Shown one piece after another: positions 18,605-64,000 of a stretch of 64,000 bases of DNA. A model generated the notes under the pieces. It worked only from the letters and a program-made list of their open reading frames with translations. It was not told the DNA's origin and searched no databases. How positions within the stretch are numbered: position 1 is the first letter of the stretch; every line of letters starts with the position of its first letter. A program made the translations under genes and the position numbers. The DNA is taken from NCBI GenBank assembly GCA_964495875.1, contig CAZBWB010000001.1:215656-279655 (forward strand), read 5' to 3'. Source of the stretch: Candidatus Woesearchaeota archaeon. Its GTDB lineage: Archaea > Nanobdellota > Nanobdellia > Pacearchaeales > GW2011-AR1.

Positions 18605-19375
18605 TTAAAAAGCATCAATTCCAAGAGTTCGTACTGAATCATATAACTCAATAAATTTTTCCTGCACTGCTTTATCTTGATTATTTATATAATTGAGTAA
18701 TCCGTCATAAAACATTTGTGCACCTTCTGGGTCTGCATTAATATAATCTTTTAGTTTTTGATTAATATTAGTAGCAAGCCAGTTAAGTATTAGTTCTTGT
18801 TCTTCTTTTGGAGCTTTATTGAATCTATCAGTTGCCTCTGTTATTAATCCTGCAACATCAGCTGTTTTAGCTAAATAATCTCCTGCTTGTTTACCAAGTA
18901 ATCTATAATCCATATCAAGATTATCAATTTCAGTTGCAAGTCCATTAATAAGTCCCAATCCGAATTCCTGAGCTCTTGATGGCAATGTTGAATATAAATC
19001 ATCAATATCTGGTTCTAGTGCTCTTATATAATCTAAAATAATATCTGATGTTTTGGGGGCATATTCTAAGACAGGTGACACAACCGGTTCTTTTGCAACT
19101 TTTTCTTCAAGTGATTTTTTAGGTTCAGGAGGTGTAGTAATTTCTTCCTTTTTCTCCTCTACTGGTGCTTCCTCTATTGCTGGTACTTCTTTCTCTGCTG
19201 CTGCCACTTCTTCTGCTGGTGCTTCAACAACTTCTTCAGTTACTACTGGTGCTTTAATTTCCTTTTCTTTTATTTTTCTACTTAGACTTTTACAGCTAAC
19301 TAAAGGACTAAACGCCAAAAAGCCTGCTACCACTGAAGCTACATAGAGTGTTGTTTTTTTGTATAGATTATTCAT
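18605..19375 (-). CDS. secreted/lipoprotein-like hypothetical protein with Glu/Pro/Ala-rich linker
   Basis: Signal peptide ending LVSC, low-complexity linker, helical C-terminal domain; SD AGGTGA. Confidence 0.65.
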   Translation of the reverse strand: MNNLYKKTTLYVASVVAGFLAFSPLVSCKSLSRKIKEKEIKAPVVTEEVVEAPAEEVAAAEKEVPAIEEAPVEEKKEEITTPPEPKKSLEEKVAKEPVVSPVLEYAPKTSDIILDYIRALEPDIDDLYSTLPSRAQEFGLGLINGLATEIDNLDMDYRLLGKQAGDYLAKTADVAGLITEATDRFNKAPKEEQELILNWLATNINQKLKDYINADPEGAQMFYDGLLNYINNQDKAVQEKFIELYDSVRTLGIDAF

Positions 19376-25227: not shown

Positions 25228-25323
25228 ATGGTATGCGATTTTCATCAGAGGCAAATAAAAAATCGCTCCCCAGGATTCAAGAGGGAAGTTGACTGTCAAG
25301 AAACCGTAGGTGTCTTACAATGA
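25228..25323 (+). promoter_or_regulatory. structured GC-elevated leader / 31-codon uORF upstream of the KH gene
   Basis: Stem GCGATTTT/AAAATCGC, stem TCCC/GGGA, palindrome TTGAC-T-GTCAA; ORF 25228..25323 ends in an ATGA overlap. Confidence 0.4.
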
Positions 25324-25826
25324 GAAAGATCTATTCAGAAAAACTTCCAAGAATTTTAAAAAACAAAAAAAAGATTGAAGCAGAACTGAATGTTAAAATA
25401 ACTAACAGAGGAAAAGAGATTACAATACAGGGAAAGCCAGAGGACGAGTATATTGCTGAAAAAGTGATTGATGCATTGAATTTTGGTTTTCCTTTTTCAG
25501 ATGCATTAATGATAAAAAAAGAGGATTTTCTTTTTGAAATAATAAACATAAAAGAGCATACAAAGAGAAAAGATTTAGAAAGAATTCGGGCACGAATTAT
25601 TGGAACAAAAGGAAAAACCCTGAAAACTCTGTGTCAACTGACAAAATGTTTTTTTGAATTAAAGGATAATGAAGTAGGAATTATCGGTCCTCCAGAATAC
25701 ATTCAAAATGCCCAAAACTCCATTATTTCGATTATCAAAGGAACAAAACAGGCAAATGTTTATAGTTTTCTGGAAAAGCATCAGGTTAAGCCTGTTTTTG
25801 ATTTAGGATTGAAAAAAGAAAAATAA
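25320..25826 (+). CDS. KH-domain rRNA-processing protein (Pno1/Dim2 family)
   Basis: ALNFGF and RIRARIIGTKGKT (GxxG); position downstream of eif1a. Confidence 0.88.
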   Translation: MRKIYSEKLPRILKNKKKIEAELNVKITNRGKEITIQGKPEDEYIAEKVIDALNFGFPFSDALMIKKEDFLFEIINIKEHTKRKDLERIRARIIGTKGKTLKTLCQLTKCFFELKDNEVGIIGPPEYIQNAQNSIISIIKGTKQANVYSFLEKHQVKPVFDLGLKKEK

Positions 25827-28588: not shown

Positions 28589-29665
28589 TTATTTCCAAAC
28601 TTCTATGCCGAGGTCTGAAACTTCTTTGGAAACTAACCGGGGTTCTTCTATGCTTTTTCCCAAAACATAAGGACTTTTAATCCCTGTCATAATAGTTATT
28701 ACTCTAACTTTTCCCACAAAATCTTTGCTGATTCTTGCACCAATGATTACCTGAGCTTCTTGACTTAAATTTTCAGCAACAATCTTTCCTATAAGGTCAA
28801 ATTCCTCTAATTTTAAATCAGGTCCGCAGGTTACATGTATTAAAGCTCCGCTAGCACCTTGATAATCCACATCAAGTAGAGGATGTGTCAGGGCTTGCTT
28901 AACAGCTTCATTAACACGGTCTGTGGTATCTGCTTCTCCAATTCCAATTACTGCAACTCCGCCATCTTTCATAATTGCTGAAACATCTGCATAATCCAAG
29001 TTGATTAAACTTGGCAGAGTTATTGTTTCAACAATTCCTTTGCACATTGTGCTAACTAATTCATTAGCAACAGCAAAAGCTTGCTCTATTGGCAATTGTC
29101 CTGCAATATCAACAAGTCTGTTATTATCCAAAACAATGCAAGTATCTGTTACATCTCTTAACTCCTGCAATCCAAATTCTGCTTTGTCAATTCTTGCTTT
29201 TTCAGCTTCAAAAGGCATTGTTACAACACCTATAACAACTGCTCCGGTTTCTTTGGCAATTTGGGCAACAACAGGAGCTCCGCCAGTTCCGGTTCCTCCG
29301 CCCATACCAGCAATAACAAACACCATATCTGCTCCACTAACTGCTTTCTTCAAATCAACCAAGGCTTCTTTTGCAGCTTCTCTTCCTCTTGTAGGAAGAC
29401 CACCACAGCCTAAACCACGAGTCAGTTCCTTGCCAATAAGAATTTTTTCATCAGCTTTTGTAACACTTAAATGAAGCGCATCTGTATTTGTTGCATATAC
29501 TGTGGCTCCGTTGATTCCTTTATTAAAAAGCCATGTAACAGCATTGCCTCCCATTCCACCAACACCAATAACCTTGATATTAGCTTTTCCTGCCTTGAGT
29601 TCATCAAAGTTAATGCTGTGAGTTTCTGATTTTTCTATTGCCTCTTTTGCGAAATCCAATACCAT
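28589..29665 (-). CDS. ftsZ: cell division protein FtsZ (FtsZ2-like)
   Basis: GVGGMGGN, GMGGGTGTG tubulin signature, PSLINLDYAD T7 loop; SD AAGGAGGT. Confidence 0.97.
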   Translation of the reverse strand: MVLDFAKEAIEKSETHSINFDELKAGKANIKVIGVGGMGGNAVTWLFNKGINGATVYATNTDALHLSVTKADEKILIGKELTRGLGCGGLPTRGREAAKEALVDLKKAVSGADMVFVIAGMGGGTGTGGAPVVAQIAKETGAVVIGVVTMPFEAEKARIDKAEFGLQELRDVTDTCIVLDNNRLVDIAGQLPIEQAFAVANELVSTMCKGIVETITLPSLINLDYADVSAIMKDGGVAVIGIGEADTTDRVNEAVKQALTHPLLDVDYQGASGALIHVTCGPDLKLEEFDLIGKIVAENLSQEAQVIIGARISKDFVGKVRVITIMTGIKSPYVLGKSIEEPRLVSKEVSDLGIEVWK

Positions 29666-42621: not shown

Positions 42622-44256
42622 ATGACATATACAGAAATTAAGAAAAAACCAAACAGGAAATACTACTATCGTGTAAAATCAATAAGAAAAGGAAAAAAAG
42701 TAAATAAAAAAAGAATTTATCTTGGAGCAAATCTAAATCAAAAACAACTAAAAGAAAAAGAACAAAAAGCAGATGAAGAACTTCTTGGAATAGAAAAACC
42801 AAAATCTGTTAAAAAAAAGCAATCAAAAGAAGGCATCAGTATTAGTAAGGAAGAAAATTTTTCAGAATGGTATCAGCAATTAATGATTAAATCAGAATTA
42901 GCAGATTATTCTCCTGTATCCGGAGCCATAATTTTGCGTCCGATGTCATATTCCCTTTGGGAAAAAATAAAACAAGCCTGTGACAAGGAGTTTAAAAAAA
43001 TTGGAATTCAGAATTCTTATTTCCCGCTATTTATTCCAGAAAGTTTATTCTCAAAAGAGCAAGAACATGTTGAAGGATTTACTCCAGAAGTTGCATGGGT
43101 AACTCAGGCAGGCAATACAAAGTTAAATGAAAGACTGGCGATAAGACCAACATCAGAAGCAATTATGTATGCATCTTATTCAAAATGGATTCGTTCTTGG
43201 AGGGATTTGCCACTGAAATTAAACCAATGGAACAATGTAGTGAGGTGGGAATTCAAAAATCCTGTCCCATTTTTCAGAACTCGTGAATTTTTGTGGAACG
43301 AAGGACATACGGCATTTGCAACAGAAAAAGAAGCATTAGCAGAAGGACCAAAAATAAGAAAAGCATATGAAAAAGTTGTAGAAGAACTTATGGCTCTTCC
43401 GGGAATATACGGCAGAAAAACACAAAAAGAAAAATTCGCTGGCGCAGTTTTTTCAGAGAAACTTCATTACTACATGCCAAATGGAAGAATAATCGAGGGA
43501 CCGTGCTTTCATCACGACGGGCAAAACTTCGCAAAAGCATATGACATAAAATTTTTGGATAAAGATGAAAAAGAAAACTATGTCTGGCAAAATACTTTTG
43601 CTATATCCACTAGAATGCTCGGAGCATTATTCGCCATACATTCAGATGACAAAGGATTAGTAATCCCCCCAAAAATATCAGAAAACAAAATTGTAATCAT
43701 ACCAATCTTTTTTGATAAGACAAAAGAAAAAGTTTTGAAAACAGCAAAAGAAATCAAAGAACAATTAAAGGATTTAAATCCGATTTTAGATGAAAGAAAA
43801 GATTTTTCACCAGGATGGAAATACAACGAATGGGAATTAAAAGGAATCCCAATAAGAATAGAAATCGGACCGAGAGATTTGGAAAACAAATCAGTGATAG
43901 TTGTCAAAAGAAATACTGGTGAAAAATTAAATATTAAAATAAAAGATTTAGAAATTCAAATTCCAAAACTTCTCGACGATATGCAAAAAGAACTTTTTAA
44001 GAATGCTAAAAAATTATTAAAGCAAAATCAGAAAAAAACAGAAGAGAAAAAAGAGTTAATTCAATTTATAAAACAAAAACAAATGGTTTTGGTTCCTATG
44101 TGCAAGTCAGAAGAATGCGAGGATATTTTAAAATCAGAAACAAGCGGAGCAAAAACATTATTCATCAATCCCAAAAAGGAATCAATAAAAGGCAAGAAAT
44201 GTATAATCTGCAAAAAGCCGGCACATTATTGGATTTATGTTGGCAGGACATACTAA
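42622..44256 (+). CDS. proS: proline--tRNA ligase (archaeal/eukaryal type) with an extra basic N-terminal domain
   Basis: FSEWY, AIRPTSEA, RTREFLWNEGH, HSDDKGLVIPP, WELKGIPIRIE, C-terminal GRTY; about 60 extra N-terminal aa. Confidence 0.95.
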   Translation: MTYTEIKKKPNRKYYYRVKSIRKGKKVNKKRIYLGANLNQKQLKEKEQKADEELLGIEKPKSVKKKQSKEGISISKEENFSEWYQQLMIKSELADYSPVSGAIILRPMSYSLWEKIKQACDKEFKKIGIQNSYFPLFIPESLFSKEQEHVEGFTPEVAWVTQAGNTKLNERLAIRPTSEAIMYASYSKWIRSWRDLPLKLNQWNNVVRWEFKNPVPFFRTREFLWNEGHTAFATEKEALAEGPKIRKAYEKVVEELMALPGIYGRKTQKEKFAGAVFSEKLHYYMPNGRIIEGPCFHHDGQNFAKAYDIKFLDKDEKENYVWQNTFAISTRMLGALFAIHSDDKGLVIPPKISENKIVIIPIFFDKTKEKVLKTAKEIKEQLKDLNPILDERKDFSPGWKYNEWELKGIPIRIEIGPRDLENKSVIVVKRNTGEKLNIKIKDLEIQIPKLLDDMQKELFKNAKKLLKQNQKKTEEKKELIQFIKQKQMVLVPMCKSEECEDILKSETSGAKTLFINPKKESIKGKKCIICKKPAHYWIYVGRTY

Positions 44257-59592: not shown

Positions 59593-60408
59593 ATGCCAAC
59601 ACAAGATACCTCTGAAATAAAAGAAAAAATCCTTTATATATTGAAAATTAAAGGTCCGAGTTTGCCTGCTCATATTGCCAGAGAAACTGGATTAAGCATA
59701 CTCTTTGCTTCAGCATTCCTTTCTGAATTAGTTTCTGAAAATAAAGTAAAAATAAGTCATATGAAAATTGGCAGTTCCCCAATTTATTATATCCCAGGGC
59801 AAGAAATCAGACTTGAAAATTTTGCTCATCATCTCAATAATAAAGAAAAAGAGGCATTTCTCCTCTTAAAAGAAAAAAAATTTCTGAAAGATTCAGAACA
59901 GCATCCGGCTATCAGGGTTGCATTAAGGGAGATTAAAGATTTTGCTGTACCCTTCAAAAAAGATGAAAATATTTTTTGGAGATATTTCAGTGTTCCAGAA
60001 AATCAATTAGTCATTAAACAACCAAAACCAAAAGAAGAATCCAAAAAACCAACATTGAATATTTTCGAAAAGCCAAAATCAACAAAAAAAAGAACAGTTA
60101 AAAAAGATGATAAATTTTTCAATAAAGTGAAAGAGTTTCTGTCATCAAAATCCATTGAAATATTAGACATTGAATGTTTCAGCAAAAATGAATTAGTGTT
60201 AAAAATCAAAAAAGATGATAAAGAAGAAATAATTATTGCTTATAATAAAAAAAGAATCAATGAAGAAGACATAATAAAAGCATACAAAAAAGTTTCAGAT
60301 AATAATTTTAAATACAATATATTATGCTTAGGAGGACCATTAAAACGGACAAAAAATCTCATAGAATCAATTAAAAACTTAAATAATATAGAAGAAATGA
60401 GCAATTGA
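59593..60408 (+). CDS. conserved hypothetical protein with wHTH domains
   Basis: KGPSLPAHIARETGL..FASAFLSEL, GSSPIYY, PAIRVALR. Confidence 0.7.
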   Translation: MPTQDTSEIKEKILYILKIKGPSLPAHIARETGLSILFASAFLSELVSENKVKISHMKIGSSPIYYIPGQEIRLENFAHHLNNKEKEAFLLLKEKKFLKDSEQHPAIRVALREIKDFAVPFKKDENIFWRYFSVPENQLVIKQPKPKEESKKPTLNIFEKPKSTKKRTVKKDDKFFNKVKEFLSSKSIEILDIECFSKNELVLKIKKDDKEEIIIAYNKKRINEEDIIKAYKKVSDNNFKYNILCLGGPLKRTKNLIESIKNLNNIEEMSN

Positions 60409-60450: not shown

Positions 60451-60642
60451 ATGGGAAAAATCAAATCAAAGATGATACGAAGAACAGTTAATAGTCTTAT
60501 TAATGAAGATATTGAATTTTCAAAGGATTTTGAAAAGAACAAACAGATACTAAGAAATATGCCGCTAAGTAAGAAATTAAGAAATCAAATGGCAGGATTA
60601 ATAGCAAAAATCAAGAAAGATGAACCGAATGCTCAGAAATAA
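60451..60642 (+). CDS. rps17e: 30S ribosomal protein S17e
   Basis: MGKIK, DFEKNK, SKKLRNQMAG. Confidence 0.92.
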   Translation: MGKIKSKMIRRTVNSLINEDIEFSKDFEKNKQILRNMPLSKKLRNQMAGLIAKIKKDEPNAQK

Positions 60643-60963
60643 ATGAAACAGGAGGTAACAATGATGGAAGAAAAATCTGTAAATGCCGATGATGACGTTG
60701 TTTATGTAGGCACAAAACCTTTCATGAACTATGTAACAAGTGTGGTAATGCAGTTTACAACCAAAAAGAGAAATAAAGTGACAATCAAGGCACGAGGCAA
60801 GTTCATTAGCAGGGCAGTTGACATTGCAGAAGTTGTAAAAAAGAAATTTCTGGCAGACCAAGCAATACGTGTAGAAGACATAAAAATCGGCAGTGAAGAA
60901 TTTGAAAACAAAGAAGGAAAAAAAATCAATGTATCAACAATTGAAATAACCCTAACTAAATAA
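60643..60963 (+). CDS. albA: DNA/RNA-binding protein Alba (likely start 60661 or 60664)
   Basis: VYVGTKPFMNYV, KARGKFISRAVDIAE, VSTIEITL; SD AGGAGGT before 60661. Confidence 0.95.
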   Translation: MKQEVTMMEEKSVNADDDVVYVGTKPFMNYVTSVVMQFTTKKRNKVTIKARGKFISRAVDIAEVVKKKFLADQAIRVEDIKIGSEEFENKEGKKINVSTIEITLTK

Positions 60964-61172: not shown

Positions 61173-61556
61173 ATGATTAAATGGTTGGAAAAAAATAAGA
61201 TAATTACTATAATGATTGTAATTCTGCTCAGCATAGAAATATTTTATTTTTCAACATTACAGGGAGGTACAGGAACAGGAGGAAATGTTTGGATAGCAAG
61301 AGCATATCATTTTATTGTATTTTTCTTACTTGCATTTTTCATTTGTATTACAATAAAAGGAGAGAAAAAATTAAGATTATCTTATATTTTGATTGCTATA
61401 ATCTTTTCAATACTACAAGCAATTTTAGATGAAACCCATCAAATATTCGTGCCATTGAGAGATGCGAGTATGAGAGATATTTTAACAGATTCTTTAGGAA
61501 TATTTTTTGCTATGATAACTTATTTAGTAATAAATAAAAAAACTGTTAACCGATAA
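61173..61556 (+). CDS. VanZ family membrane protein
   Basis: YHFIVF, DETHQIFVP.R, DILTDSLG. Confidence 0.85.
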   Translation: MIKWLEKNKIITIMIVILLSIEIFYFSTLQGGTGTGGNVWIARAYHFIVFFLLAFFICITIKGEKKLRLSYILIAIIFSILQAILDETHQIFVPLRDASMRDILTDSLGIFFAMITYLVINKKTVNR

Positions 61557-61899
61557 AAATTCCTCTTTTATTATCGCCTCCTTTTCTGGGAAGTAAATGG
61601 AAATGAACATGATTAACAATCTGTCCTGCTGCTTTTCCATTATTCAAAACAACATTAAATCCATCAGCATTATATTTTTCCATTAAAATTTTTCCAACTT
61701 TTTGTAGAATTTTAAAGTATTCACAAGAAGTATCTTCATCTAAATCCATCAAAGTCTTAAAATGTTTTTTCGGTATCACTAATGTATGACCTTCACCTAC
61801 TGGTTTAATATCTGGAAAAGCAACAAATTTTTCATCTTCATAAATCTTATCAGCAGGAATCTCCCCTCTGGAAATCTTACAAAATATACAATCTTCCAT
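61546..61899 (-). CDS. HIT family protein
   Basis: CIFCKI, GHTLVIPK, HVHFHLLPR. Confidence 0.95.
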   Translation of the reverse strand: MEDCIFCKISRGEIPADKIYEDEKFVAFPDIKPVGEGHTLVIPKKHFKTLMDLDEDTSCEYFKILQKVGKILMEKYNADGFNVVLNNGKAAGQIVNHVHFHLLPRKGGDNKRGIFIG

Positions 61900-61975
61900 A
61901 ATTAAGTAAAAAAATTTGATTTAAAAATATATTGAAAACTACAAAAACCTTCAAAATAAAAATTATTTATTATTT

Positions 61976-62134
61976 TTATCTTCTTCTTTTCTTTCTGGTT
62001 GTCTTTCTTTTTTGTGGTGCTTTCTTTTTTTTCTTAGAAGCTGCTGCTTTTTTCATTTGTTCTAACTTAGTTATCTGCTTCTTAAGAGATTTGATCTTAG
62101 CAGCAATTTGTTTTGGTGTTTTAGCTTTAGCCAT
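61976..62134 (-). CDS. 52-aa very basic protein (paralog 1; absent from the ORF track)
   Basis: MAKAKTPKQIAAKIKSLKKQITKLEQMKKAAASKKKKKAPQKRKTTRKKRRR*, SD AGAGGTGA. Confidence 0.82.
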   Translation of the reverse strand: MAKAKTPKQIAAKIKSLKKQITKLEQMKKAAASKKKKKAPQKRKTTRKKRRR

Positions 62135-62235
62135 TTACTCACCTCTCTTTTAATTAATCATATCAAGAATTAATTATTTATAAACTTTTTGTAAAAAAAT
62201 TAAAAATGATTTTTGTCGTCGAGAAAATCATCCAA

Positions 62236-62430
62236 TTATTTTCTCTTTCTTTTAGAAGATTTTTTTCTGACAGACTTTCTCTTTTTTTTACTGCTAAGAG
62301 ACTTATTAGCTTTTTTTACAGCACCTCTTGCTTTTACAGTCGCATCTCTCGCTTTCTTAAGCAAAGAAATTTCTTTTTCTAAAGCTCTTATTTTAGCAGC
62401 AATTTGTTTTGGTGTTTGAACTTGTGCCAT
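62236..62430 (-). CDS. 64-aa very basic protein (paralog 2)
   Basis: MAQVQTPKQIAAKIRALEKEI...KKSSKRKRK, SD AGAGGT; shares TPKQIAAKI with paralog 1. Confidence 0.82.
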   Translation of the reverse strand: MAQVQTPKQIAAKIRALEKEISLLKKARDATVKARGAVKKANKSLSSKKKRKSVRKKSSKRKRK

Positions 62431-62492
62431 TTTTACCTCTTTTTTTAATTATAAAAATTAAGAAAGCATTATTTAAAAACTCTTTTATCGAT

Positions 62493-63962
62493 TCATTTTT
62501 TCCTAGTATCAACCAGTTTTCCCAGTTCCAAAATATTTTTTCCATTAATCGCTTCTATTAAAGAATTTTTTAAATTTTTTATCTTAATTCTAACTTGCTC
62601 TCCTGTATCTCTGTCACGAACAGTAACATCTTTATTTTTTATTGAATCTTCATCTATGGTTATACAAAATGGTGTTCCAATTTCATCTTGTCTTGCATAT
62701 CTTCTTCCGATACTTCCAGATTTATCATAGATAATATTAAATTCTTTTTTCAAATCATCAAAAATCTCTTCTCCAATTTTTTCCAAATCTTTTCTTTTTA
62801 CAATTGGGAAAACAGCAGCAGTTATCGGAGCTAATTTTGGAGATAATTTTAAAATTATATTTTCCCTTCCCTTGTCATAAAAATATGCATCAAACATAAA
62901 AACTAACAAAGCTCTTTCAACTCCTTGACTCGGCTCACAAACAACATATGGCAAAAATTTTTCTTTTGTTTTTTCATCAAAAATTTTCAAATCTTTTCCA
63001 GAAAATTTTTCATGCTGTCTCAAGTCAAAATCAGTCCTGTTTGCCATACCCTGCAGTTCTCTCCATCCAAAAGGAAATTCATATTCCAAATCCCAAGTAT
63101 CTAAGGCATAATGAGATTTTTCATCAGGCAAATGTTGTCTTATCCTGAATTTGTGCGAATCTGCTCCAAGACTAATAAACCATAAAAATTCCTGTCCGAG
63201 CCAGTAAGCATGCCAGTCTGTTTTTATAATTTTATTTTTATAAGCACTTTTCAATTTCATTTTTTTTGGCTCTGAATTTTTCTTCTGCATCTCGGCAGAA
63301 TACACTAATATTTCAGTATCGGGAATTTCATAAGGACATTTTTCTTTTGGATTAACGAAATATTCAATCTCCATTTGCTCAAACTCCCTGCATCTGAATA
63401 AAAAATCACGTGGAGCAATTTCATTTCTGAATGCCTTGCCAATCTGAGCAATTCCAAAAGGCAGTTTCATTCTTGCATTTTCATAAATAGGTTTGAAATT
63501 AGTAAATATCAACTGAGCAGTTTCTGGACGTAGATATGCAACTCCATCCAACCCAACATTAGTCTTAAACATTTGCTCGACAATCTGAGCCTTATCCCAA
63601 TCATATTCTCCTCCGCAATCACATTTAATCTTTTTTAACTCATATCTTTCAACCTTTTTAGATTTTTTACATTTTTTACAGATAACTAAAAAGTCATTTA
63701 CATTAAAACCTCCTACATGTCCTGAAGCTTCCCATACTTTCGGATGAGTTATAATGCTTCCGTCAATACCAACAATATCTTCCCTATCATGAACATGAAA
63801 ATTCCACCATTGTTTTTTGATATTGTTTTTTAATTCAACTCCTAAATGTCCGAAATCCCAAAAACCTGCAAATCCTCCGTAAATCTCTCCAGAAGGATAC
63901 ACAAATCCTTTTCTCTTGCAGAATACAGCCATATCTTCAATTGAAATTTCTGGTTTAATCAT
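62493..63962 (-). CDS. glyS: glycine--tRNA ligase (homodimeric type); frame stays open to the window end, so the start may lie upstream
   Basis: EIYGGFAGFWDFG, YLRPETAQ, RNEIAPRDFLFRCREFEQME, EPSQGVER, GRRYARQDEIGTP. Confidence 0.95.
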   Translation of the reverse strand: MIKPEISIEDMAVFCKRKGFVYPSGEIYGGFAGFWDFGHLGVELKNNIKKQWWNFHVHDREDIVGIDGSIITHPKVWEASGHVGGFNVNDFLVICKKCKKSKKVERYELKKIKCDCGGEYDWDKAQIVEQMFKTNVGLDGVAYLRPETAQLIFTNFKPIYENARMKLPFGIAQIGKAFRNEIAPRDFLFRCREFEQMEIEYFVNPKEKCPYEIPDTEILVYSAEMQKKNSEPKKMKLKSAYKNKIIKTDWHAYWLGQEFLWFISLGADSHKFRIRQHLPDEKSHYALDTWDLEYEFPFGWRELQGMANRTDFDLRQHEKFSGKDLKIFDEKTKEKFLPYVVCEPSQGVERALLVFMFDAYFYDKGRENIILKLSPKLAPITAAVFPIVKRKDLEKIGEEIFDDLKKEFNIIYDKSGSIGRRYARQDEIGTPFCITIDEDSIKNKDVTVRDRDTGEQVRIKIKNLKNSLIEAINGKNILELGKLVDTRKK

Positions 63963-64000
63963 TTCAGTTTTTTTCTCTTCAGTTTTCTCATGTTTTATTC

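Follow-up and report, generated by a model that had tools for sequence, protein, structure and literature searches.

Paralogous helix-tail microproteins of DPANN archaea form an undescribed family that resembles polycationic nucleic-acid binders in architecture

Two adjacent genes in a 64,000-nucleotide (nt) stretch of a Candidatus Woesearchaeota archaeon genome (contig CAZBWB010000001.1; the whole stretch is called the window below) encode microproteins of 52 and 64 amino acids (aa), which are paralogous members of an undescribed family of 35-90 aa proteins. The family occurs only in some Pacearchaeales/Woesearchaeales-type DPANN archaea. Its members are real, conserved genes under purifying selection that have strong expression signals, and their products share an architecture in which a conserved helix is followed by a tail rich in lysine and arginine (K/R). 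At the level of architecture, the family resembles known polycationic nucleic-acid binders, and by analogy an H1/protamine-like role in chromatin is plausible. All coordinates are positions within the window, and both microprotein genes lie on its minus strand.

Results

The two genes belong to a microprotein family of DPANN archaea

Both open reading frames (ORFs) were present as an earlier note on this DNA had described them, adjacent genes of 52 and 64 codons, the shorter of which is overlain by a shadow ORF (Table 1). The first 24 residues of the two proteins have 15 identities (63%; BLASTP E=3e-9) and include a common MA..(K/Q)TPKQIAAKI. The 25-nt identity that the note had reported together with the shared TPKQIAAKI was recovered exactly (62097-62121 = 62393-62417) and lies inside a 50-nt direct repeat with 84% identity. 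This 25-mer has two matches in the window versus zero expected from 100 shuffles. A second direct repeat (D2; 43 nt, 77%) consists of the upstream regions of both genes.

A single-sequence, word-indexed search with the 52-aa protein gave 23 proteins of 37-70 aa, which share MAKAKTPKQIA.KI[KR]SLKKQ[IV]TKLE followed by a K/R tail. Profile searches extended the family to 35 matches at E<=0.001 among 1.84e9 representative proteins (42-85 aa, except for four of 170-602 aa) and to at least 119 family clusters among 90%-identity clusters, all of which are unnamed or called "hypothetical protein" except one 64-aa cluster labelled adenylate kinase by JGI. The family motif is M-A-x-x-K-T-P-K-Q-[ILC]-x-x-K-I-[KR]-S-L-K-K-Q-[IV]-x-x-[LM]-E, then a K/R tail ending in KRR or KKR, and both window proteins match it. 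Scanning GTDB species, one genome per species, with two strict peptide patterns gave 39 loci in species-representative metagenome-assembled genomes, a number that is a lower bound; all are labelled Pacearchaeota, Woesearchaeota, Nanoarchaeota or "archaeon". The viral contigs searched contained no relatives, and the possibility of a DPANN-virus packaging protein was rejected for that reason. The earlier description of the pair as lineage-specific paralogues was borne out by the homology and profile searches and the genome scan, which places the family only in some ultra-small DPANN archaea. That the proteins would be special to this cell was not, since the family is single-copy in most relatives.

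A conserved amphipathic helix is followed by a tail of conserved charge

Column conservation, computed over 168 unique sequences, was 100% for Q9, 99% for T6, K8 and L17, 96% for I14, 95% for E25, 92% for K18 and K29, 90% for K5, 89% for S16 and 88% for P7. Residues 5-25 read KTPKQ[IL]a[IAV]KI[KR]SLKKQ[IV]xKLE and are conserved at 85-100%, and the helix is more conserved than the neighbouring glycyl-tRNA synthetase (GlyRS) and HIT proteins of the same loci. A hydrophobic stripe (I/L/V/M; I10-I14-L17-I21-L24 in the sequence) occupies positions 10, 14, 17, 21 and 24 in d-a-d-a-d register, about 2.5 heptads, and T6-P7 resembles a helix N-cap. AlphaFold2 predicted a single helix in each protein, spanning residues 7-51 of the 52-aa protein (predicted local distance difference test score, pLDDT, 86) and 7-63 of the 64-aa protein (pLDDT 87). 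The hydrophobic moment is ~0.5 in the head and 0.2-0.3 in the tail. The stripe and the predicted helices agree with the amphipathic helical half and K/R tail that had been proposed from the letters.

The 52-aa protein has 24 K/R residues (5 Arg and 19 Lys codons) and a single acidic residue, as the note had counted. Across the family the tail, which begins after residue ~27, is 8-56 aa long and consists of 44% K and 15% R (59% K+R), 13% A, 7% V, 8% S/T and 3% P. It nearly always ends in KRR, RRR or KKR, and the net charge has a median of +23 and reaches +46. The orthologue of Pacearchaeota CG_4_10_14_0_2_um_filter_35_33 (L018:6001-6180; L and P numbers denote related loci) has an R/S-rich tail, SGSRTRRRRSGSSSRRTTRRRR, in place of the usual Lys/Ala/Val tail, which indicates that charge rather than lysine is selected.

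The genes are under purifying selection

In the 21 helix codons of 41 coding sequences the proportion of synonymous differences (pS) was 0.72, which is saturated, whereas that of nonsynonymous differences (pN) was 0.20, and the median dN/dS was 0.17. Third codon positions are two to three times more variable than the first two, and codons for Ser and Leu cross between codon families. The helix is under purifying selection that is specific to the reading frame. Spurious ORFs arising from A-rich, low-complexity DNA, or a non-coding RNA locus, have next to no probability: the ORFs are very short, lysine codons are the cheapest at 30% GC and an antisense ORF is also open, but the selection signature is tied to the frame, the same start, helix and C-terminal KRR recur in about 170 unique homologues, a promoter-like box and a ribosome-binding sequence are conserved at fixed distance, a scan of 61400-62700 with Rfam found no RNA family, and the antisense openness reflects codon composition. 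Of the 41 family genes checked, 35 have one antisense frame without stops, which results simply from AAR-rich codons that give YTT on the opposite strand.

An assembly artefact as the source of the tandem pair was also rejected. Both genes lie on a single 9.6-kb Logan contig, and the junction at 62130-62312 is crossed, with no differences, by a separate 183-nt contig of another run.

Each gene has its own expression signals

Read on the minus strand, both genes have the same layout of a TATA-like box, then a Shine-Dalgarno (SD) sequence and then a T-rich tract past the stop codon (Table 1). The earlier note had given each gene a strong SD and its own AT-rich upstream region, in agreement with these signals. 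The TATA-like box, an AATTAAA element and a GAGGTG SD stand at fixed spacing in about 50 orthologous loci, and these shared conserved elements account for the likeness of the two upstream regions in the window. The boxes, with their adjoining sequences resembling the transcription factor B recognition element (BRE), are putative promoters of both genes. Oligo-T tracts have a known role in archaeal transcription termination, and for that reason the T tracts would serve as terminators.

Complementarity to the anti-SD sequence was scored in the 20 nt before each start codon. Of 53 window genes only six have 5 nt or more, whereas 34 have fewer than 3 nt. The six are the two microprotein genes, ftsZ (28589-29665) and the genes at 18605-19375, 59593-60408 and 25320-25826; the 52-aa gene ties for the best SD of all 53. 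These counts suggest that most genes of the window use leaderless or SD-independent initiation, and that a small SD-led class exists beside them. Among the 19 Lys codons of the 52-aa gene the share of AAG is 0.42 versus a background of 0.19, and equals that of S17e.

Table 1 Positions of the microprotein genes, their signals and neighbouring features in the window
Feature	Position	Strand	Basis
Coding sequence, 64 aa, type-2 paralogue; MAQVQTPKQIAAKIRALEKEISLLKKARDATVKARGAVKKANKS followed by K/R/S tail	62236..62430	-	ORF; gene call in independent Logan contig; family hidden Markov model (HMM) E=4e-14
Coding sequence, 52 aa, type-1 paralogue; MAKAKTPKQIAAKIKSLKKQITKLEQMKK followed by K/R tail with KRRR end	61976..62134	-	ORF; gene call in L001; family HMM E=4e-17
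BRE/TATA-like element (aaaagag-tttttaaata) of 64-aa gene, ~45 nt before ATG; putative promoter	62470..62486	-	Read from sequence; same element and distance in ~50 orthologous loci
BRE/TATA-like element (aaaaag-tttataaata) of 52-aa gene; putative promoter	62175..62190	-	Read from sequence; within direct repeat D2; conserved in ~50 loci
SD AGAGGT of 64-aa gene	62435..62440	-	Read from sequence; SD complementarity scan
SD GAGGTGA of 52-aa gene, preceded by conserved AATTAAA element of the 5' untranslated region (5'-UTR)	62139..62145	-	Read from sequence; SD scan; orthologue comparison
T5-AA-T7 tract 3' of 64-aa gene, putative archaeal oligo-T terminator	62193..62206	-	Read from sequence
T5-A-T4 tract 3' of 52-aa gene, putative terminator	61953..61962	-	Read from sequence
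Antisense shadow ORF, 73 aa, non-gene, overlaps 52-aa gene	61932..62153	+	ORF list
GlyRS, 5' end cut by window; directly upstream, same strand	62493..63962	-	Pfam tRNA-synt_2b and HGTP_anticodon
HIT-family hydrolase; directly downstream, same strand	61546..61899	-	Pfam HIT, E=4e-31
Alba, about 1 kb from the microprotein genes	60643..60963		

Note that the AATTAAA element (AACTAAA in the second of the two genomic contexts described below) lies directly 5' of the GAGGTG SD, 10-25 nt before the ATG, in almost all orthologues of both contexts; in the window it is found at 62146-62156 and 62441-62450. It may mark the 5' end of the transcript or be a translation-related 5'-UTR motif.

The pair is an old duplication in a conserved genomic slot

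Related loci carry one copy of the gene, and two copies were found only in the window genome. Among the 39 loci, glyS lies 60-170 nt upstream in 21 and a HIT gene 30-200 nt downstream in 23, all on one strand. In this glyS-HIT context the order past the HIT gene is VanZ, Alba, S17e, an unannotated protein of 271-344 aa, the tRNA-splicing endonuclease (EndA) and leucyl-tRNA synthetase (LeuRS); the proximity of Alba to the pair had already been noticed. In a second context, which comprises the MALPTTPKQC subfamily plus L014 and L037, the gene lies between an M50 peptidase and Tyw1, near eIF5A, FKBP, FtsZ and L1-L10-L12. The most diverged pair of loci, L049 and L051, have an adjacent but divergent HIT gene, and GlyRS is not nearby.

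The 64-aa protein belongs to a type-2 subfamily (KEISLL..AR.A...AR.AVK.A), other members of which are single-copy in the same glyS-HIT slot (L053-L055); at a further type-2 locus, L052, the contig ends right past the gene. Its identity to single-copy type-2 orthologues (L052, L054, P0054, L034) is 52-64%, versus 35% to its 52-aa neighbour, and the 52-aa protein is 63-72% identical to type-1 orthologues. The nearest relatives by GlyRS and EndA identity carry one type each (type 1 in L013, type-2-like in L034/L055). Because each paralogue is closer to single-copy orthologues of other genomes and close relatives have one type each, the pair is, by sequence comparison, an old duplication that was kept here and resolved to a single copy elsewhere. 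Orthologues in other species (L014/L002-4, L061) contain an exact copy of the 25-mer that the two genes share, which therefore reflects amino-acid constraint plus codon preference rather than recent duplication. Recent tandem duplication or gene conversion as the origin of the 25-nt identity was rejected on this ground and because the copies are at a saturating pS of 0.675.

The microproteins match no known family and resemble several small basic proteins

Scans of the microproteins against Pfam, NCBIfam and PHROGs gave nothing meaningful. A profile search of all Protein Data Bank (PDB) chains, ribosomes included, returned only chance coiled-coil matches (best E=0.54, a kinetochore coiled coil), and Foldseek of the AlphaFold2 model against the PDB found no match, as expected of a single helix.

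Linker histones H1/H5 have a winged-helix globular domain of ~75 aa, whereas the microproteins are one continuous predicted helix, and neither the 52- nor the 64-aa protein has a Pfam match to Linker_histone (PF00538) at E<=10. Their anchor, unlike that of H1, is a 20-residue helix. With the C-terminal domain of H1/H5 and the bacterial H1-like tails (AlgP and the PAKKA repeats of mycobacterial Ku/HupB) they share a Lys/Ala-rich, low-complexity tail of variable length in which composition rather than sequence is conserved, and by analogy electrostatic, non-specific binding of polyanions would be expected. The H1 tail is rich in Lys, Ala and Pro and the microprotein tail contains 44% K, 13% A and 3% P, a compositional likeness and not homology. 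No H1 homologue is known in archaea (PMC6136690). Protamines share the extreme positive charge, tiny size and near absence of acidic residues, but they are Arg-dominated (about half or more), whereas the microprotein tail is Lys-dominated (K 44% versus R 15%) and is joined to a conserved amphipathic helix, in prokaryotic proteins of unrelated sequence. Given the missing winged-helix domain and a tail dominated by Lys rather than Arg, membership of the protamine/H1 family, which the earlier note had implied, does not stand.

The C-terminal region of TubY, a protein of type III plasmid partition, has the same order of modules, in its case a coiled-coil tetramer and then a lysine cluster. The TubY tail binds DNA non-specifically, also binds membranes, and turns helical on a surface (PMC7762940). 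TubY is larger, is of MerR type with a helix-turn-helix domain and has no detected sequence similarity to the microproteins. Archaeal nucleoid proteins (7kMk of Methanopyrus, Cren7/Sul7, MC1 and Alba) are, like the microproteins, small, basic, lineage-restricted and probably abundant. The microproteins have no Pfam match to the histone fold, Alba, Cren7, Sul7d or MC1 and are predicted to form a single helix rather than a folded domain; 7kMk, the 7-kDa DNA-binding protein of Methanopyrus kandleri, is listed as a nucleoid-associated protein in PMC6136690. The tiny basic ribosomal proteins (eL41/eS32, bS22, bL37 and THX) are alike in size, charge, helix prediction and translation-rich neighbourhood, but no microprotein matched eL41 (PF05162) or the other ribosomal models, or the ribosome chains of the PDB, and the microprotein tail is hypervariable. 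In bZIP proteins the basic region is N-terminal to, and runs without a break into, a leucine zipper of at least four heptads, whereas the microproteins have the reverse order and about 2.5 heptads (positions 10-24), and no bZIP Pfam match was found.

The helix weakly resembles the C-terminus of GlyRS

When the family HMM was run against 4,112 local ORFs, the top non-family matches were GlyRS proteins (best E 1.2e-4). Alignment with hhalign placed microprotein residues 3-29 on the last strand and helix of the GlyRS anticodon-binding domain (P=1.4e-4, probability 53%). The C-terminal strand-helix consensus of GlyRS, RDRDTTKQIRVKISELKNILRKLI (window 62493-62570; L045:4368-5915, L015:1389-3041 and other GlyRS genes), is similar to the head of the microproteins, AKAKTPKQIAIKIRSLKKQVTKLE, and prolyl-tRNA synthetase (ProRS; window 42622-44256) is a weak match at the same domain position. 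The likeness may be due to chance, or the gene may have arisen from a duplicated 3' fragment of glyS. Such an origin would explain the usual position of the gene.

The synthetases themselves have an additional feature. GlyRS of many relatives (L020:4132-4330, L013:4217-4400 and others) and the window ProRS (42622-42800) carry an extra N-terminal module of ~50 aa, K-K-x-x-G-K-x-Y-Y-Y-L...R-x-x-G-K-V...Y-L-G followed by a Lys/Glu-rich helix, which has no Pfam match. It looks like an appended domain common to two class II synthetases.

Discussion

We tentatively favor, at somewhat less than an even chance, a self-associating helix joined to a polycationic tail that binds nucleic acid non-specifically, and mainly DNA. 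Oligomerization, nucleic-acid binding and DNA as the target are what we infer from the architecture, as follows. Residues 6-27 would form a T-P-capped amphipathic helix whose invariant stripe and flanking polar residues serve self-association or docking, and the rest of the chain would be a polycationic, probably induced-helical tail in which charge is conserved but not sequence or length. Oligomers would present several tails and so bind the phosphate backbone non-specifically. The tails would then neutralize and bridge nucleic acid, most likely the chromosome, beside histones and Alba. DNA is favored as the main ligand because the tail evolves as in H1, with free length and sequence and fixed charge, because the signals point to an abundant protein (a strong SD, rare in this window, and a proportion of AAG among Lys codons like that of S17e) and because the chromosome would be the largest polyanion in very small cells with genomes of ~0.7-1 Mb (bioRxiv 10.64898/2026.05.13.725050). 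The coiled coil plus lysine cluster of TubY gives, by analogy, a characterized precedent for DNA binding by such an arrangement (PMC7762940).

Several points weigh against a DNA-binding oligomer. Nothing separates DNA from RNA or another polyanion as the ligand. The helix spans only the ~2.5 heptads, a parallel homodimer of type-1 proteins would suffer repulsion between its g/e residues (K13, K18), and position 12, an exposed f position, is usually hydrophobic (I/V/L/A), as would be expected of docking on a partner, or of a strand, more than of a simple zipper. A charge-complementary heterodimer of the two paralogues was considered and dropped, as the e/g pattern is inconsistent across type-2 orthologues. 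The neighbors are mostly translation genes (GlyRS, S17e, EndA and LeuRS, or eIF5A, Tyw1 and L1-L10-L12). The earlier note had raised the question of canonical histones. Searching with phmmer (HMfA, HMfB and HTkB) found none in the ORFs of the window and 51 loci with ~10-kb flanks, which cover no whole genome, and no similarity to the microproteins. Histone genes and Alba are, however, listed for Pacearchaeota and Woesearchaeota in a published survey (Henneman et al., PMC6136690), so that there is no obvious missing chromatin function to fill and the need that the note implied is weakened. As to expression, neither the window locus nor the L019 orthologue is present in any RNA sequencing run, the only runs to contain them are three of sediment-metagenome DNA, and a Pacearchaeota metaproteome paper does not mention such a protein (PMC11537232). 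Tryptic proteomics would be blind to it because trypsin cuts the protein into pieces of five residues or fewer.

The conserved neighborhood and helix bring in a lineage-specific ribosome- or RNA-associated peptide, in which the helix docks at a fixed site and the tail lies on RNA. We regard this as the main rival, possible though somewhat less likely than the DNA-binding reading. Such a peptide could be a small ribosomal protein not described before, a chaperone of rRNA or tRNA, or a helper that binds tRNA in trans, as the Lys-rich helical appendages on aminoacyl-tRNA synthetases of eukaryotes do. Both genomic contexts are rich in the translation genes just named, nearly every helix position is conserved, exposed ones included, as is typical of a fixed macromolecular site, and the hydrophobic residue at position 12, the single copy in reduced genomes, the strong SD and the S17e-like use of Lys codons all fit. 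Tiny lineage-specific basic ribosomal proteins exist elsewhere, such as bS22/bL37 in Actinobacteria and THX in Thermus. The hhalign likeness to the end of the GlyRS/ProRS anticodon-binding domain is suggestive only. On the other side, the family matches no ribosomal-protein model or chain of solved structure, a tail that varies seven-fold in length and freely in sequence would be unusual for a segment that fills one set rRNA pocket, the gene lies outside any ribosomal-protein operon behind a promoter-like box of its own, and in small related genomes gene order says little about function. If a ribosomal role is true, the family would add a new lineage-specific ribosomal or translation-associated peptide amid a reduced translation machinery.

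A stronger form of the DNA-binding reading, which we consider unlikely, is that Nanobdellota evolved in this family their own functional counterpart of linker histone or protamine, a helix-anchored polylysine protein that would be a major neutralizer and bridger of the chromosome in tiny cells with DNA as the dominant polyanion. It was perhaps born from a 3' fragment of the adjacent glyS gene, in which case a duplicated fragment encoding the last strand and helix of the anticodon-binding domain would have been read on into A-rich DNA.

The gene order also raises a partner or regulator of the HIT hydrolase or GlyRS, whose helix would bind the enzyme while the tail tethers it to nucleic acid or to a nucleotide-polyanion substrate. 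Of the 39 genome loci about two-thirds have a HIT gene as the next gene downstream (within 200 nt in 23), as do 6 of 10 metagenome loci, and HIT is still adjacent, although divergent, in the most diverged subfamily, where GlyRS is not nearby (L049, L051). GlyRS is 60-170 nt upstream in most loci, and its C-terminal similarity could mean an origin from a duplicated glyS 3' fragment. However, in at least 12 genomes the gene lies between the M50 peptidase and Tyw1, away from both HIT and GlyRS, some loci of the glyS context lack HIT (L013, L016, L022), HIT is preceded by a promoter-like box of its own and is translated separately from the microprotein, and a local inversion keeps adjacency without selection. 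We think this association very unlikely to be the function.

Binding of some other polyanion or of membranes, be it polyphosphate granules, anionic lipids or action as a secreted or host-directed cationic peptide, is more improbable still. Here the likeness to the TubY tail, a binder of membranes as well as DNA (PMC7762940), and to the H1-like AlgP, which is found at polyphosphate granules (PMC9239181), together with the amphipathic head (hydrophobic moment ~0.5), is set against the lack of a signal peptide, aromatic residues or a hydrophobic anchor, a net charge of up to +46 that is far above that of membrane-active peptides, and polar helix positions too conserved for generic lipid binding.

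Were the DNA-binding reading true, the family would be a chromatin component of uncultured ultra-small archaea that surveys of nucleoid proteins based on homology are unable to see, and a counterpart, by function and not ancestry, of the H1-type tails reported absent from archaea. Microproteins escape inventories of archaeal chromatin and ribosomal proteins that are built on homology. This family is undetectable by tryptic proteomics and often missed by gene callers, and its members are small enough for synthesis and direct testing.

Other features of the locus

About 30 nt ahead of the HIT start codon lies a TATA-like box, atatttttaaat (window 61897-61935); the HIT gene lacks an SD and is probably a separate, near-leaderless transcript outside any operon with the microprotein genes. 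The GlyRS ORF is 489 aa in the window, where it is truncated by the window end (63962-64000), and 563 aa on the Logan contig of the same genome (L001:3181-4872). The stop codon of S17e (60451-60642) directly abuts the Alba start with no intergenic base, and several related loci (L005-L007, L010-L012) keep these two genes paired, a link between a ribosomal protein and Alba that fits the reported RNA binding of Alba. The gene at 59593-60408 encodes a 271-aa protein (283-344 aa in relatives) that has no Pfam match at E<=0.001; its place between the S17e and tRNA-splicing endonuclease genes is conserved in most of the related loci.

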